A stretch of 40,059 nt of DNA, from positions 1 through 40,059 of IMG/VR virus record IMGVR_UViG_3300048576_000513. One strand, 5' to 3'. The position numbers were made by a program, and so were the translations under genes. Position 1 is the first letter of the stretch; every line of letters begins with the position of its first letter. The stretch comes from a virus. Taxonomy: Duplodnaviria > Caudoviricetes. This document shows positions 3,644 to 40,059 of the stretch, one piece after another. The notes beneath the pieces were generated by a model. That model searched no databases, had not been told where the DNA came from, and saw nothing but the letters and a program-made list of their open reading frames with translations.

Positions 3644-4126
3644 TCATAAATTTGCCGCCCTTCGGATGCCGTCGTACAGAGCCAATCCGGGCACCCAGGA
3701 ACCGTCCAGTTGATCCTCGTATTGGGCCACCATCCAGCCCAGGACGCGGTAGATGAGCCGCCATGTGTGGGCAAGCTGAGACCGGCCGCCGCGCCGGGCA
3801 ACCAGTTCCGCATCCTCGGCTAGGCCGTGGGCGGTGACGATCCAGCGGAGCCCATCTTGTGTTTTCGCCCCTTGGCGTTCGACCACGTCCATGACTTGGC
3901 CCAGAGTCTTGGCGTAAGCATCATGGGCTTTCTGGTTCTTGAAATGCCAGCCACCTTTTTCGTTCCGGCCACCTAGGCGCAGCTCGCAAAGGCGGATGAG
4001 GCAGCCGAGCCGGGCCCGGGCCATGGCAAGGGCGGGGATTGCATCCGTGGACGTGTAAACGGCGTTGCAGACATCCACGGCGATCATGTGGGAACGGTAG
4101 GCAAGTGATGGGGTGACGGTGTTCAT
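3644..4126 (-). CDS. Hypothetical protein
   Basis: Starts MNTVTPS with ATGA overlap. Confidence 0.65.
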   Translation of the reverse strand: MNTVTPSLAYRSHMIAVDVCNAVYTSTDAIPALAMARARLGCLIRLCELRLGGRNEKGGWHFKNQKAHDAYAKTLGQVMDVVERQGAKTQDGLRWIVTAHGLAEDAELVARRGGRSQLAHTWRLIYRVLGWMVAQYEDQLDGSWVPGLALYDGIRRAANL

Positions 4127-4689
4127 CCCTCCACCCTCTTCACCTTCACCACCCAAGCCCACGGGTTCGACTCCCAGGGGTAGCGACGGCCGTAGCGGGA
4201 GGACCAGAACGCCTCAAACTCCGCACGAATCTGCTTGTAGAGCTCATGGCTGGCCGGAGTGTCCATGGACACGCCAAGGGCCATCCGCATGTCGTTCTCG
4301 CAGAGTTGATGCAGGCGGCAGCACCGCACGCTTTCAACCTCCAGGGTGATCCTGGACGCTGCTTCCGGCATCCTGGTTGACGGTTCCCAAGGGCCAGATT
4401 CAACACCATCCGCCGCATAAGCGTACTCATTGACGGGGTGGCCCAATGCCTTCCACGTCTCTTTGCACCGCAGCCGCGTTCCAGGGGCGCCGAAGGGGCT
4501 CTTATCGAGGATCGTGAACCGCCCGCACGCTCCAAGAACTGTACGGCCGGCGACGTCCATATGGTCGGCCAGCGGATGACTGCATACGCACATCGTCTTG
4601 TGGGCGACCGGCCTGACGACCAGCCCCAGCCTATCGTCCAGAGCGGCGCGGGCTTCGTGCGGCGAGAGGGTGAAGCTATGTTCTTTCAT
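4123..4689 (-). CDS. Phage ASCH/PUA-like protein
   Basis: KETW, WEPSTRMPEAASRITLEV, WESNPWAWVV resemble the common WxPSIHMPRWASRITLE...WxxNPWVWV family. Confidence 0.7.
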   Translation of the reverse strand: MKEHSFTLSPHEARAALDDRLGLVVRPVAHKTMCVCSHPLADHMDVAGRTVLGACGRFTILDKSPFGAPGTRLRCKETWKALGHPVNEYAYAADGVESGPWEPSTRMPEAASRITLEVESVRCCRLHQLCENDMRMALGVSMDTPASHELYKQIRAEFEAFWSSRYGRRYPWESNPWAWVVKVKRVEG

Positions 4690-35083: not shown

Positions 35084-36208
35084 ATGGGCGAAACCAACGG
35101 GCAAGCGCTGTACGACACCTACCAATGGGCACGCAGCATCGTCTGGAGGGCGCAGCTCGACCAGTTCGAAGCCGAAGCCCTCCTTTCCATCCTGGCCACC
35201 CTCGACAAGGGCCGCCGCGAGGTCATGCGCGAGTTCCAGGCCCGCTACGCCGGCGCGAACCTTTCCGACTGGCAGGAGGCCCGGCTTGAAGCCCTGCTTT
35301 ACGAGGTGGAGGATTTAACCGCGGGCGTTCGGTCGGAGCTCACGCAGCAGTACACCACCATGTCCGTGACCGTGGCCGCGCCGACGCTCACCGAAACCGT
35401 GGGCGCCCTGTCCGTGGCCGGCCTGGCCAAGGGCGTGAACAATGTGGCGCTCTCCCCGACGCAGCTTCGGACCTTCTTCCAGGAAACACCCCTGGGTGGC
35501 CGGCTGATCCAGGAGTGGGTGGACCGCACCTTCGACTTCAACATCCAGGGCCAGATTCGGCAGGCCATCAACGTGGGCGTGCTGCGGGGAGAAGGCTATC
35601 CGGGGCTGGTGCGGCGGATGGAAGACGGGTTCGGGATGGCCCGGCAGGACGCCATTTCTTTGACGAGAACTTTTGTAAGTAGCGCAAACAATCAGGCAAG
35701 AGATATGGTGTATCGCGAAAATCGCGATATAGTAAAGAAGTGGCGTTGGCTTACGGCGTCGGATAATAGAGTTTGTCCGATTTGTCTTGCATTGCATGGT
35801 AGAGAGTTTAAGATAGGGGAAGGCCCGGAAACCCCCAAGCACATACGCTGCCGATGTGTACGCTTGCCCGTTACAGTCACTTGGCGTGAACTTGGTATTG
35901 ATATAGACGAAATGCAACACGAGCTTGACCGCTGGGTGGTTCGTGGGCGGGAGGGCGAGAACGGCGAGATTCTGGTTCGGGGCGTGCATGAGGGCGGGAA
36001 AGACCCTGTTCTTCGTGTTGGGCGTTACAAGAACGCCGACGCATTTTGGGACAGCATGTCCGACGCGGAGAAGGCCAGCACGAGCATGGGACCGGGCCGG
36101 ACGGCATTGCTGAACTCGGGAGACATCAAGATGGCGGATTTGATTCGGGAGGACTTTCAGCCCAGGACGCTCAACGAGTTGAAGGCGTTGGCGGCGTCCA
36201 GGGGTTAA
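35084..36208 (+). CDS. Head morphogenesis protein (SPP1 gp7/Mu F family)
   Basis: RT..SSANN, W...DNRVCPIC..LHG, PKHIRCRC; follows portal. Confidence 0.93.
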   Translation: MGETNGQALYDTYQWARSIVWRAQLDQFEAEALLSILATLDKGRREVMREFQARYAGANLSDWQEARLEALLYEVEDLTAGVRSELTQQYTTMSVTVAAPTLTETVGALSVAGLAKGVNNVALSPTQLRTFFQETPLGGRLIQEWVDRTFDFNIQGQIRQAINVGVLRGEGYPGLVRRMEDGFGMARQDAISLTRTFVSSANNQARDMVYRENRDIVKKWRWLTASDNRVCPICLALHGREFKIGEGPETPKHIRCRCVRLPVTVTWRELGIDIDEMQHELDRWVVRGREGENGEILVRGVHEGGKDPVLRVGRYKNADAFWDSMSDAEKASTSMGPGRTALLNSGDIKMADLIREDFQPRTLNELKALAASRG

Positions 36209-36210
36209 GC

Positions 36211-36453
36211 TCAGCCGGCATCATCGAACAAATCTTTCGGCCGAAGCCCAAGCGCCCCGGCAATCTTCTGAAGATTCTTGAGCGTCAGGGTGTCAATCCC
36301 GGCTGCGCCATCCCTCCTGGCTTTCCGGATCGTGACGAGAGAAAGCCCCGAGGCCTTTGCCAGGCCTTCCATGGTGAAGCCCTTCAGGCGGGCCAATTCG
36401 TCGATCCGGCTTTTCACCCGCATTCCCTGAAACATTTCTTTCCCCTTGGTCAA
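36211..36453 (-). CDS. XRE-family HTH regulator divergent from the Cas7-like cassette
   Basis: TMEGLAKASGLSLVTIRK...LQKIAGALGLRPKDLF; start uncertain. Confidence 0.85.
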   Translation of the reverse strand: MTKGKEMFQGMRVKSRIDELARLKGFTMEGLAKASGLSLVTIRKARRDGAAGIDTLTLKNLQKIAGALGLRPKDLFDDAG

Positions 36454-36525
36454 TGCCGGAAGTCCCCAATCTGTGGCCAGTCAAGGTTATTTACTTTCAT
36501 GCAGATGCCATAAAAATACCGCACC

Positions 36526-36561
36526 GTCACGCTTGACGTGACTACTGCCTGATAGTATTCT
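36526..36561 (+). promoter_or_regulatory. Cassette promoter with operator over the -35
   Basis: TTGACG (36533-38)-17 nt-TATTCT (36556-61); GTCACG-N5-CGTGAC at 36526-42. Confidence 0.75.
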
Positions 36562-36594
36562 TTCATAACACTTGGCGAGCAATGGGCCTGTCAT

Positions 36595-36846
36595 GGTGTG
36601 GCTCGCTGGGGCGCGGCTCAGATTGGTTTGGCGCGTTGCGGTGAAGCACGGCAAGGCGTTGTCTGGTGTGCCAGGGCGTGGGACGGCAAGGCTTGGAAAC
36701 AAATTTCTCGTGGCTTGGCGTGGGTGCCGATGTGGGGCGAGGTAAGGCGAGGCGCGCCGATGCTCGGTTTGGGTAAATTTTTTCATGGCGAGGCACGCCC
36801 GGGCGGTGTGAGCCGGGGTGGTGCTAGGCGTGTCAAGGCAAGGAAC
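36595..36846 (+). ncRNA. Upstream array of three GGY-NN pentamer tracts (putative guide RNAs)
   Basis: 5-nt register at 36595-36699 (13 of 21 units start GGY), 36712-36775, 36787-36846; A/T linkers AAATTTCTCGT and AAATTTTTTCAT. Confidence 0.8.
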
Positions 36847-36866
36847 TTTTAACGCGAGGATGAAAA

Positions 36867-37487
36867 ATGGAACGCATCGCTTTTCAGATCGAAGGCATTG
36901 CTCCGATTCTCATGCACGACAATACGCGGCTGGCGAATCCGCTTGATCCGCTGTGCAAGGAGCTGAAATCGGTCACCAGCAAGAAGAAAAAAACCGATTC
37001 CGACTTGGCCGCCATTGCCAAAATCGAGTTTCGCGGCGGTATCTATTTCGATGAGACGGACGGACCCTACATCCCGTCCCGCTGCATCCAGGCTATGCTC
37101 CGGGATGCCGGAACCATCAACAAGCAGGGCCGGGCCGTGAATCGCGGTGTCGTGGTCGTCGAGGACAAGTGTCCGCTCCAGTACGAAGGGCCGCGCACCA
37201 TTGACGCGCTTTTCGAGTCGGGCGAATTTACCGACATGCGCCCGGTGAAGGTCCAGACGTCCACCACCGTGCGCTGCCGGCCCATCTTTCGGGCCTGGGG
37301 CATCAAGTTCACCCTGGCCTTTCAGCCCGACGTCATCAACCGTGAAGAGGTCATCGACATCGTGGAGCGCGCCGGCATGATGACCGGATTGGGCGACTAC
37401 CGGCCCGGTTCTCCCAAGGGGGGCCAGTTCGGTCGCTTCGAGGTGGTGGCCATCGACGGCAAAAAGGTGGCCAAGGAGGCGGCGTAA
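36867..37487 (+). CDS. Stand-alone Cas7/RAMP-superfamily-like protein
   Basis: IEGIAPILMH first strand, PYIP..IQAMLRDA helix, RPIF..W..KFTL, G-rich loop GLGDYRP...GQFGRFEV. Confidence 0.75.
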   Translation: MERIAFQIEGIAPILMHDNTRLANPLDPLCKELKSVTSKKKKTDSDLAAIAKIEFRGGIYFDETDGPYIPSRCIQAMLRDAGTINKQGRAVNRGVVVVEDKCPLQYEGPRTIDALFESGEFTDMRPVKVQTSTTVRCRPIFRAWGIKFTLAFQPDVINREEVIDIVERAGMMTGLGDYRPGSPKGGQFGRFEVVAIDGKKVAKEAA

Positions 37488-37489
37488 TC

Positions 37490-37984
37490 ATGGGTGCCCT
37501 TCGATCCATCCGCGAAGCCCACAAGCCGCCCGAGGGAACGCAATACGACAAGGGGTGGCAAAATGCCCTGGCGGCTTTCGACTCAGCCGATTTTTATCCC
37601 GGCGACATCATCCCCATGGCGTGGTTCTATGAGCACTTCCGGGTCAAGGAGCCTTCGTCTCGCGGGACGATAGCCGAGTTCCAGGAAGAGCAGTTCCGTT
37701 TCCTTGGGGAGATGGACCGCTTCCAGAAGGCCCTGGCCGAGGATTACGACCTCGCTTTGCAAAACGTCCGGGGCGAGGGCTACCGGATCGTTCCGCCGGC
37801 CGAGCAAACGGAATGGGCCATGGACCGAGCGCAGCGGGAATTTGGGAAGGCCCTTTCTCGGGCGCACATGCGCTTGACGCATATTCGGCTGAACGAGCTG
37901 ACCGACGAACAGCGCCGGCAAAACGCCGACGCACAGGCCAAGCTGGCCGCGTTCAGGACGAGGGCCAGGACGGCGTTGGTTTGA
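37490..37984 (+). CDS. Accessory protein of the cassette (winged-helix-like)
   Basis: AGGAGG RBS; wing-like LQNVRGEGYRI; helical C-terminus. Confidence 0.75.
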   Translation: MGALRSIREAHKPPEGTQYDKGWQNALAAFDSADFYPGDIIPMAWFYEHFRVKEPSSRGTIAEFQEEQFRFLGEMDRFQKALAEDYDLALQNVRGEGYRIVPPAEQTEWAMDRAQREFGKALSRAHMRLTHIRLNELTDEQRRQNADAQAKLAAFRTRARTALV

Positions 37985-37992
37985 ATTTTCGT

Positions 37993-38524
37993 GGCAAGGT
38001 CTGGTGGGGTCCGGAAAGGCACGATACGGCTGTGCTGGGTCGAGTTTGGCTTGCCTCAAAGGTCCGGCGGCTTCGGTCGTCGGGCCGAACGAGGTTGGCT
38101 CGGGAGTGGTACGGCTGTGTCTGGTTCTGCACGGCGGGGCGATGTTGGGCGTGGCTTGCCTTCGAGGTGCAGCGGCGAAAGTCGTTGCACTGATCAAGGC
38201 GCGGTCCGGACTGGTTCGGCGGGGACAGGCGCGGCTGGGCAAGGTTCGGCCTTACATGGCCAGGCAGAGCAAGGATTGCCTCCGAGAAGCCGGCGTTTCG
38301 ATCCTGGCTTCGATCGAGGCGGGGAGATGTTGGGTGAAGCCGGTCGATGCACGCCATGGCTCGGTGATGCCGGCCACGGCCAGGCTTGCCTCCGAGGCCC
38401 AGGGAGCAATCCTTGGGCCGATCAAGGCTAGGCACGGTTGGGCGGAGTGTGGCGCTGTTGGGATTGTTGGGCGGTGTTGGGCTTGCCTTGCAGGGGCGTC
38501 AACTCCGATTGGCGTCCCGATCAA
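37993..38524 (+). ncRNA. Downstream array of five GGY-NN tracts, each closed by GGMTTGCCTY, hairpin and GAWCRA
   Basis: Tracts start 37993, 38093, 38198, 38318, 38426; hairpins 38061-86 (UUCG), 38167-90 (GAAA), 38286-311, 38396-419 (GCAA), 38493-518. Confidence 0.88.
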
Positions 38525-38543
38525 GATAAGCAGGAGGAAAGAC

Positions 38544-38792
38544 ATGCCCGATGACCTCACCCGCAAACGCCTCACCATCGCCGCCTTCCACAACGCCACG
38601 GCCGACCACCTGGAGCGCCAGGCCGTTTCCCTCTTCCGCCAGTCCGGCCAGTCCCGGGCGGCGGCGAACTATGCGACCGTCATGCCGGCGGAAGAGGTCG
38701 AGAAGGTGTTCCCGCTGGTCATGGCCGCCATTGAGGAGGCGAAGCGCGGGCAGAGGCTGGCGGGGATGGGGGTGGAGGGAGGCACAAATTAA
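38544..38792 (+). CDS. Small hypothetical protein after the array
   Basis: AGGAGG RBS; MPDDLTRKRL..., 82 aa. Confidence 0.7.
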   Translation: MPDDLTRKRLTIAAFHNATADHLERQAVSLFRQSGQSRAAANYATVMPAEEVEKVFPLVMAAIEEAKRGQRLAGMGVEGGTN

Positions 38793-39328: not shown

Positions 39329-39685
39329 TCAACTCTCCACTCCCTGCGTCAGGGTATCGAGCGGGATGCCCAAACCATTATGCAGGGCGTGGGCCATGTC
39401 CAGGGTCAGCCGGCGCTTCCCAGCCAGGACTTCGGACACAACCTCTTCGCTGCCGATGAACGGTTCCAAGCCGCGCGGGGTCAGTCCTCGCTGCTCCATG
39501 GCGAATTGGATGGCTTCATGGGGGGTAGGCTTGGGGATGGGGTAGTGCTCGTCTTCGTAGTCCTCGACGAGCTTGGACCAATGATCCAGGCGTTCGGCGT
39601 CTTCCGTGCCCTCTTGGGCGTGCATGAGCGAAAGGACGGTTTTCAGTGCCTCATCATAGTCTGCTTCCGTCGTAATGCGCTCCAT
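39329..39685 (-). CDS. higA: HigA-like HTH antitoxin
   Basis: ITTEADYDEAL..LVEDYEDEHYPI..MEQRGL..VSEVLAGKRRLT. Confidence 0.88.
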   Translation of the reverse strand: MERITTEADYDEALKTVLSLMHAQEGTEDAERLDHWSKLVEDYEDEHYPIPKPTPHEAIQFAMEQRGLTPRGLEPFIGSEEVVSEVLAGKRRLTLDMAHALHNGLGIPLDTLTQGVES

Positions 39686-39687
39686 AC

Positions 39688-40059
39688 CTACCTCCCCGCC
39701 TGCTTTCTCCCCAGCCCTTCCGCCAGCAACGCCACGGCCAGGGTGTTCATGGACACGCCTTCGATCTCGGCTTGTTGAGCCAGCTTGGCGTGGAGGCTCT
39801 TGGGGGCACGCAGGTTGAACTTGCCGGAAGCTGCTCCCCCGCTTCCCGGGGCCGGGAGCGCGCGTCCGTCCTCCAGGTAAATGGCGATCACCCCTCCCAG
39901 AGCATCGCGGCCATTGGCCAAAGCCTCTTCCGGCGTCTCGCCGTCCGACATGACCGCGCCGGGAAAGTCCGGGAACACGACCAGCCACCCGCCGCCGTCC
40001 TCTTCGGTGAGCGGCGTTATCTGAAAGGGGTAGTCCTCGAACTTCGGCATGGTGGGCAT
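39688..40059 (-). CDS. hicB: HicB family antitoxin
   Basis: EEDGGGWLVVFPDFPG..SDGETPEEAL; RHH SGKFNLRAPKSLH..EGVSMN. Confidence 0.93.
   Translation of the reverse strand: MPTMPKFEDYPFQITPLTEEDGGGWLVVFPDFPGAVMSDGETPEEALANGRDALGGVIAIYLEDGRALPAPGSGGAASGKFNLRAPKSLHAKLAQQAEIEGVSMNTLAVALLAEGLGRKQAGR

Follow-up and report, generated by a model that had tools for sequence, protein, structure and literature searches.

The tract vr1 is best explained as the guide region of a vrRNA from a VIPR cassette of type II-like make-up, apparently complete and borne by a prophage of Desulfovibrionaceae type, and it is predicted to direct silencing of the gp7/MuF gene of rivals lacking VIPR; we put the probability of this reading at roughly 0.85. 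Silencing of rivals is predicted because the code carried by vr1 matches the gp7/MuF genes of related phages that are without VIPR. The stretch analyzed, referred to here as the window, comprises positions 1 to 40,059 of the IMG/VR record IMGVR_UViG_3300048576_000513. It should be noted that both the system and its code are already published, the code having been in print since April 2026, and that the gapped NN-x code proposed for this locus in a preliminary description is the published rule. The window does indicate that raw sequence alone suffices for a blind reading of the VIPR code, and that the code predicts a target in the prophage of an anaerobe, far from the E. coli and Pseudomonas models. 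Three details would be of interest to specialists: the structural-gene targets, a self allele of 69% match beside the guide, and tRNA-like tails in actinophages.

VIPR, an RNA-guided DNA binder related to CRISPR, is the subject of three bioRxiv preprints issued by a single laboratory in 2026 (10.64898/2026.04.26.720920; 10.64898/2026.04.26.720927; 10.64898/2026.10.15.759431), and the statements on published systems made here follow the parts of these texts available to us. Vipr is a minimal RAMP protein which polymerises on the vrRNA with one protomer per repeat, and the vrRNA itself is composed of 9-16 YNNGG units and a structured 3' tail (10.64898/2026.04.26.720920). Under the "1-nt skip rule", which was set by experiment, GGY is sequestered by the protein and NN pairs with DNA, leaving out one target base in three; the base left out is mostly at the wobble position, and both DNA strands can be targeted (10.64898/2026.04.26.720920). 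According to the VIPR preprints binding of Vipr leads to repression of transcription, vap1 strengthens protection, and natural targets, defined by an NN match of at least 80%, were found in competing phages and satellites.

The eight tracts claimed for the window in the preliminary description are real, with three in 36595-36845 and five in 37990-38481 (Table 1). All lie on the vipr strand and are composed of 9-18 units each, where a vrRNA calls for 4 or more, the NN series differs between every two tracts, and the GG period is strictly 5 nt, is found on the + strand only and is confined to two non-coding blocks. In the downstream block five modules stand in tandem; in each of them a variable tract precedes GGCTTGCCTYNNAGG, after which come a hairpin of differing sequence and GATCRAGG. 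The five array tails share one predicted fold of 16 pairs, 9 of them with compensatory changes, in which a closing stem of 5 bp surrounds the variable hairpin. The structured 3' tail is a feature of the array only, since no shared structure was found in the three upstream tracts (vr1-vr3), which end in A/T-rich stretches. No Rfam family attained its gathering score, either in the window or in eight loci related to it, and ARAGORN returned no tRNA in the window. The XRE-type HTH gene at the left end of the cassette is possibly its regulator.

Table 1. Features of the VIPR-like cassette and of the adjoining gp7 gene (positions in the window).
Feature	Position	Strand	Description
Resident gp7 footprint	35654..35707	+	25/36 (69%) to vr1; encodes ISLTRTFVSSANNQARDM, conserved MuF motif
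A/T-rich mosaic patch in gp7	35654..35930	+	GC 0.42-0.57, against 0.60-0.72 in the gene upstream of the patch
XRE-type HTH gene	36211..36453	-	80 aa; Pfam HTH_26, HTH_3; left end of inserted cassette
Putative sigma-70-like promoter	36533..36561	+	TTGACG, 17 nt, TATTCT; followed after about 34 nt by the first vr1 repeat; consensus match only
vr1	36595..36686	+	18 GGYNN/YNNGG units; NN pairs spell the gp7 footprint
vr2	36709..36772	+	3 units, 4-nt register break, 9 YNNGG units (36728-36772), then A/T-rich stretch
vr3	36784..36843	+	12 YNNGG units; end just 5' of the vipr ribosome-binding site
vipr	36867..37487	+	206 aa, minimal Cas7-like RAMP protein; phrog_4652, PHROG E 2.6e-55
vap1-like accessory gene	37490..37984	+	164 aa; phrog_5926, PHROG E 1.2e-27
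vrA1	37990..38094	+	12 YNNGG units (37990-38049) and tail (GGCTTGCCTC..., hairpin, GAACGAGG)
vrA2	38090..38199	+	13 units (38090-38154) and tail
vrA3	38195..38319	+	16 units (38195-38274) and tail
vrA4	38315..38427	+	14 units (38315-38384) and tail
vrA5	38423..38526	+	about 12 units, internal register shift (38423-38481), and tail

Read as 18 pentamers (36595-36684, with GG at the start of 12), vr1 yields at pentamer positions 4-5 the reverse-complemented series GT AC CT AC AG AC TT GT TC GC GC AA AA GA GC CC GA AC, exactly as previously listed. Two more units, GGCAA GGCTT, continue to about 36699; the gp7 match is not extended by them and they are probably the start of a tail. A recount against the resident gp7 at 35654-35707 gave the same 10/18 dinucleotides and 25/36 bases as had been claimed, the base left out being the third of each codon. 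The footprint is in the frame of the MuF/gp7 ORF at 35084-36208 (Pfam PF04233), the product of which is a Phage_Mu_F/SPP1 gp7-type head-morphogenesis protein, and it is the top vr1 site on both strands of the window, with the runner-up at 20/36. When the order of the pairs in vr1 was shuffled, 3 out of 1000 guides attained 25 or more anywhere in the window, which makes the match somewhat rarer than the earlier chance estimate of 0.01-0.03, before allowing for eight tracts. The resident match is real and unlikely to arise by chance, and taken alone it is not decisive given eight tracts and the free choices made in the decoding. At 69% it is also below the 80% NN-match line drawn for natural targets in the available text of the VIPR papers.

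The gp7 loci of other phages were drawn from species genomes, IMG/VR and metagenomes, and those with gp7 identity of 50% or more were counted as siblings; homologs of gp7 with 72-80% identity are known, including one from Solidesulfovibrio alcoholivorans. The 12 sibling loci hold 10 distinct alleles, every one of which outscores the resident one (26-31/36 versus 25), and eight of them, at 29-31/36 (81-86%), are past the 80% line; the match is always at the homologous site and always in frame. The alleles of loci L078 and L080 score 31/36 and that of L074 scores 30/36, and more distant MuF genes score 21-28 at this site. The expectation that related phages would hold near-perfect, in-frame gp7 targets was thus borne out as to the frame and as to a better match than the resident gene, and failed as to near-perfection, as the best allele retains mismatches at 5 of 36 bases. 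At the peptide level the sibling consensus at the site, VTLTRTFVSAANN.ARDM, mends three resident mismatches to the decoded guide, and compatibility with decoded vr1 is 16/18 for the best homologs versus 12/18 for the resident protein. The controls proposed in the preliminary description also turned out in its favor: no shuffled guide did as well, be it in 200 trials over 415 kb (maximum 26) or in 100 trials over the full length of five sibling records (maximum 25), and in the latter records a skip of 1 gave 31/36, as compared to 23, 22, and 23 for skips of 0, 2, and 3 (19-23 overall). Other dinucleotide registers reached 22-27 in sibling records, and reversed-only or complemented-only readings 23. 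It should be noted that the sibling matches are not independent events, since the alleles are homologous to each other and to the resident gene. No vr1 target with three or fewer mismatches in the first 15 pairs was present in a sample of 301 genomes of the Solidesulfovibrio family, and the exact 11-pair vr1 pattern was found in one IMG/VR contig only, the already known L080. If wobble bases are skipped, synonymous changes should leave the guide largely unaffected, as had been proposed, and the 10 alleles agree with this: their majority identity is 0.85 at codon position 1, 0.95 at position 2 and 0.64 at position 3, and no wobble column is invariant; the second VIPR preprint, in its available text, likewise argues that wobble skipping defeats synonymous escape (10.64898/2026.10.15.759431).

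The sibling phages appear to be without the system. A Vipr homolog was present in none of the five whole sibling records, three of which are at least 90% complete, and GG tracts within 6 kb of gp7 occurred at just one of 37 loci scanned, that of a distant relative. In siblings L072 and L074 the homolog of an 82-aa gene (orf82, 38544-38792) starts a few bases past the end of gp7; in the window the two genes are separated by 2.3 kb, composed of the XRE gene, vr1-3, vipr, vap and the array. Judged by this sequence comparison, the cassette is an insertion relative to the siblings between gp7 and orf82. One metagenome contig joins 36187 to 38550, a weak junction with a depth of 4.8 and 30 letters on the shorter side; the metagenome contigs come from four runs labelled 'RNA-Seq cDNA', which are probably DNA, and among the runs listed for the locus none is recorded as RNA.

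The 206-aa protein has no Pfam family. Its AlphaFold2 model (pLDDT 93, pTM 0.87) gave 64 Foldseek matches in the PDB at E<=0.001, the best being type III Csm/Cmr subunits including Csm3 (E about 1e-5, TM 0.45-0.56), and the model appears to combine the RRM core, thumb and G-loop expected of a minimal RAMP; the C-terminal loop GLGDYRP...GQFGRF is seen in the alignment. It is 34% identical over 194 aa (E 4e-41) to the phiSUSP1 ORF located between GGTNN tracts, and a search of the phiSUSP1 record with Vipr gave E 1.3e-33. Residues H17, R138, D177, and R179 of SUSP1 Vipr are described as reading two guanines in the available text of one preprint (10.64898/2026.04.26.720927). These four GG-reading residues are identical here, W178 is replaced by Y178, and the residues of the pyrimidine (Y) pocket, E71 and M72, are not conserved, being S and R. 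The 164-aa vap1-like protein matches the product of the gene that immediately follows vipr in phiSUSP1 (E 4.4e-9), LESphi2 (7.5e-25) and Trine (1.4e-7). Homologs of the 206-aa Vipr were identified in 130 named phage records, and in all eight of the named phages examined among these (LESphi2, Medea1, Trine, HY02, LittleE, MakoManhole, prophiBWHA-1, and phiSUSP1) the gene pair is flanked by GGYNN tracts with a GG period of 5, which in the A/T-rich coliphages take the form GGTNN. Searching the cassette against named phages with blastn gave no match, and a related-locus search from the Vipr protein alone yielded no relative. An exact 15-mer of the array tail had 45 matches in IMG/VR, which we attribute to chance because none carries GG tracts (maximum 7/12 in phase). 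Other identities considered for the tracts were a TRAP-like ring-protein site, a CsrA sponge, tandem two-layer G-quadruplexes, an opposite-strand Rho-utilisation site, a gyrase or pac site and a ToxI-like antitoxin; all were dropped because of the strict 5.0-nt period, the RAMP neighbor and the target matches.

The features of the locus are consistent with those of type II VIPR as known from SUSP1 and a Pseudomonas fulva prophage; i.e., a homologous vipr and vap1 pair, vrRNAs upstream and a tailed array downstream, GGY/NN repeats, a 1-nt skip falling on the wobble, a prophage carrier, targets in competing mobile elements and no self-target at 80%. According to the available text of the preprints, which count 664-667 representatives, VIPR typing rests on Vipr phylogeny; the present locus is filed as a VIPR system of the type II kind by its vap1-type neighbor and by arrays which are tailed rather than staggered or ribozyme-interspersed, and this assignment is one made from sequence features. 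It differs from the type II models in its Desulfovibrionaceae-like host lineage, the nearest gp7 being that of S. alcoholivorans, in having three upstream vrRNAs instead of one, in the 18 units of vr1 as compared to 9-16 in published vrRNAs, and in a tail built as a 5-bp closing stem round a variable hairpin, whereas the tail of the SUSP1 clade is a pseudoknot. The targets are structural and packaging genes (gp7/MuF and TerL), while those named in the available parts of the preprints are a satellite recombinase and lysis-lysogeny regulators. Two natural target classes would thus be added, namely the head-morphogenesis gene of a sibling prophage and the terminase of a small capsid-encoding element.

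With the Cas7 family of Class 1 CRISPR systems (Csm3, Cmr4) the protein shares the fold, composed of RRM core, thumb and C-terminal glycine-rich loop, and, as reported in the available VIPR papers, the use of one protomer per RNA repeat. The period is however 5 nt with 2 bases read in VIPR and 6 nt with 5 read in CRISPR, and the guide is made of the repeats themselves and not of a contiguous spacer. The cassette has neither a CRISPR array nor cas1/cas2 nor a nuclease partner; the scan for CRISPR-Cas detected no repeat-spacer array, and no cas family among the neighboring proteins scanned except the RAMP-like fold. In ToxIN, a type III toxin-antitoxin system, the toxin cleaves ToxI repeats which are identical to one another. 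The likeness to ToxIN and to other tandem phage sRNA arrays consists of tandem non-coding RNA units beside a small protein gene in a phage; in the present locus, in contrast to ToxIN, no two tracts are alike, conservation is confined to the tails, and the protein is a RAMP.

For the remaining guides, targets were sought by matching exact 8-pair sub-patterns in IMG/VR followed by scoring of the full guide. The clearest result was obtained for vrA3, which matches five IMG/VR contigs in frame at 29/32 (91%), a score attained by none of 200 shuffles (maximum 22). The site is within a 595-aa ORF with large-terminase (TerL) PHROG matches, on an integrated element of 15.1 kb (CheckV 96% complete) which we liken to a capsid-encoding satellite because of its genes for an integrase, a primase, a portal, a major head protein and a MuF protein; it resembles such elements, and the label of satellite is ours. 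A candidate target of vrA2 scores 22/26 in seven IMG/VR contigs of one phage family, seven of the eight contigs matched sharing one gene family. The site lies on the strand opposite a small ORF, at whose wobble positions the skipped bases fall, and its matches past the selected core are only marginally above chance. For vrA4 there were 29 exact 8-pair matches, the best full score being 23/28 in two contigs, which was rejected because about 0.4 such matches are expected by chance on a rough binomial estimate. The 19/24 match of vrA1 in one sibling record is equalled by 2% of shuffles and was rejected given eight guides, and for vr2, vr3, and vrA5 nothing above shuffles was found in the window, the sibling records and the IMG/VR contigs searched. 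Five of the eight guides are thus without a target among the sequences searched, and with the marginal vrA2 added six lack a convincing one. Within the window no self site reaches 80%, the best vr1 site being at 69% and those of the other full guides at 59-72%; an 8-pair fragment of vrA5 has a self match of 13/16, which 43.5% of shuffles equal.

By analogy with the published systems, as far as the available text describes them, Vipr protomers would coat the vrRNA, one per repeat, hiding GGY and presenting NN; the resulting filament would pair with one DNA strand, skipping every third base; and the bound complex would repress transcription, an effect that vap1 would enhance. This scheme supposes that the vr RNAs are made and processed in the host, and either that 5 mismatches, as in the best known allele, do not prevent targeting or that better-matching alleles exist. 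Divergence of the resident allele would spare the phage from its own guide.

A decoding chosen after inspection of the tracts invites the suspicion of coincidence, in which case the tracts would be a G-rich repeat element of another kind, RNA or DNA, with no address in their NN pairs. That most of the eight guides lack a match in the sequences searched would agree with this, and a resident score which 3 in 1000 shuffles equal is not overwhelming when there are eight tracts. The skip rule was, however, fixed independently by experiment, as set out in the available text (10.64898/2026.04.26.720920), the sibling alleles reach a score that 0 of 300 shuffles attain, and only a skip of 1 and the NN register work. 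A second guide, vrA3, finds a different gene with 0 of 200 shuffles equal to it, and the adjoining protein is a Cas7-like homolog of a characterized Vipr. We consider coincidence extremely improbable.

It is somewhat easier to imagine that vr1 acts on the resident gp7, with 69% representing a deliberately weak site which tunes or times the head-morphogenesis gene of the phage itself. The resident site leads the window by 5 bases and is ~900 nt from the guide, and, following the available text, either DNA strand could be targeted (10.64898/2026.04.26.720920). Every one of the distinct sibling alleles nevertheless matches better, and in the loci tested by the papers, as far as their available text goes, there is no self-target of at least 80% (10.64898/2026.04.26.720920). 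Since the siblings keep gp7 without the cassette, the gene does not need it, and the residual match can be ascribed to homology between the resident gene and the true target; own-gene control is in our judgement improbable. Marginally less credible again, and very improbable, is a decaying or orphaned cassette in which vr1 records a former target and the guide or the whole system is defunct. Six of the 18 vr1 units are without GG, there are register breaks in vr2 and vrA5, and the provirus record is estimated to be 67% complete. Against decay, vipr and vap are full-length open frames, the RNA-reading residues are conserved and the match to the target extends to the NN pairs of the degenerate units; internal degeneracy is moreover frequent in working vrRNAs, according to the available text (10.64898/2026.04.26.720920), and related contigs hold the tails and swap the guides, as would be expected of a system in use. 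We therefore retain the reading of vr1 as a VIPR guide directed at the gp7/MuF gene of rival phages.

The locus offers a clean case for how a PAM-less system spares its carrier, with its own homolog of the target 900 nt away, a match of 69% and a mosaic patch at the footprint edge. One scenario, which is tentative and which we hold to be doubtful, is that in the absence of a PAM VIPR separates self from rival by allele divergence, and that this phage gained immunity by recombination, the patch cutting the match from ~83% to 69%. If this were true, diversifying gene conversion in the structural genes of phages would be concentrated at VIPR footprints, and mosaic patches could reveal who targets whom. 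In the alignment with six siblings the left edge of the patch is the first codon of the footprint and its right end is at about 35930; the patch is in part common to sibling L071. The coincidence of patch edge and footprint edge is a single observation. The differences within the footprint are not concentrated on the positions which are read. Related metagenome contigs show 17 differences from the window (~99% identity) over the 1455 nt that lead from 35867 across vr1-3 to within vipr, and at 35713-35867 the same contigs are of equal length and diverged in sequence. In other contigs the array tails are kept and the guide tracts differ. Such patterns in gp7 and in the guides are consistent with a contested site at which alleles are replaced and guides turn over.

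The sibling prophages, related phages carrying gp7 homologs, have gp7 and the 82-aa gene adjoining one another, while in the window the two are separated by the whole cassette of VIPR, the published RNA-guided DNA binder. Phage Medea1 carries a similar VIPR cassette, inserted among its tail genes, in which an HTH regulator gene again lies on the other strand. No capsid or tail genes were found downstream of gp7 in the window record, which is rated 67% complete.

The left edge of the A/T-rich patch inside the resident gp7 is the first codon of the footprint, the gp7 site homologous to the target of guide tract vr1. Part of the patch is shared between the window and a sibling gp7 locus (L071), and in near-identical metagenome relatives positions 35713-35867 are occupied by a diverged segment of equal length.

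Over the array (window 37990-38480) the array tails, for example 38153-38319, are retained in contigs of four wastewater metagenome runs, and the guide tracts flanking the retained tails differ on both sides; one form of these contigs has 53 other letters in place of 37990-38153. Among close relatives the guides turn over and the array tails stay. The element containing the target of the array guide vrA3 encodes an integrase, a primase/helicase, an ERCC4 nuclease, TerL, a portal, a major head protein, a DnaT-like protein and MuF; none of its scanned ORFs is a tail gene, and it resembles a capsid-forming phage satellite. The same target was found in four more contigs of 6-12 kb each.

Locations of features in the window and in the related loci
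Feature	Location	Remarks
Whole VIPR cassette	window 36209-38543	2.3-kb insertion between gp7 and 82-aa gene
XRE HTH gene within cassette	window 36211-36453	divergent, minus strand
A/T-rich mosaic patch inside gp7	window 35654-35930	
XRE-like regulator gene and HicB-type antitoxin gene (Pfam HicB, Arc)	window 39329-40059	minus strand; right end of record
vrA3-targeted element	L160 (G311)	15110 nt; small, integrated
LESphi2 vrRNAs	L051:3029-3500	three, upstream of vipr; operon next to cI
HY02 (Felix-O1-like phage) vrRNA tracts	L056:2690-2960, 4060-4175	
tRNA-like minihelices after vrRNA tracts	L053:4076-4352; L057:2748-2929, 4347-4393; L058:2981-3145; L059:2873-2919	actinophage loci

In the VIPR loci of Gordonia phages Trine and MakoManhole and Mycobacterium phages LittleE and prophiBWHA-1, every vrRNA tract is followed by a tRNA-like minihelix composed of an acceptor-like stem and a T arm, in which the GGTTCGAnTCC loop is invariant and 8 of the 11 pairs show compensatory changes (nine copies compared). 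One copy was called 'tRNA-???' by ARAGORN; Rfam returned no match for these minihelices. Since the word 'tRNA' is absent from the main text of the two VIPR preprints searched for it, tract plus minihelix may represent an undescribed array architecture, with RNase P and RNase Z as its possible processing enzymes. Every LESphi2 vrRNA terminates in a hairpin in which GGGCTG is closed by CAGC(G), and in HY02 an A/T-rich box (AAAGGTCTTTAAGAGGGTCTTTTAATAAGGT), possibly a promoter, recurs in front of each tract. Trine gene 40, annotated 'hypothetical protein', overlaps the vrRNA array of that phage and may be partly a miscall.
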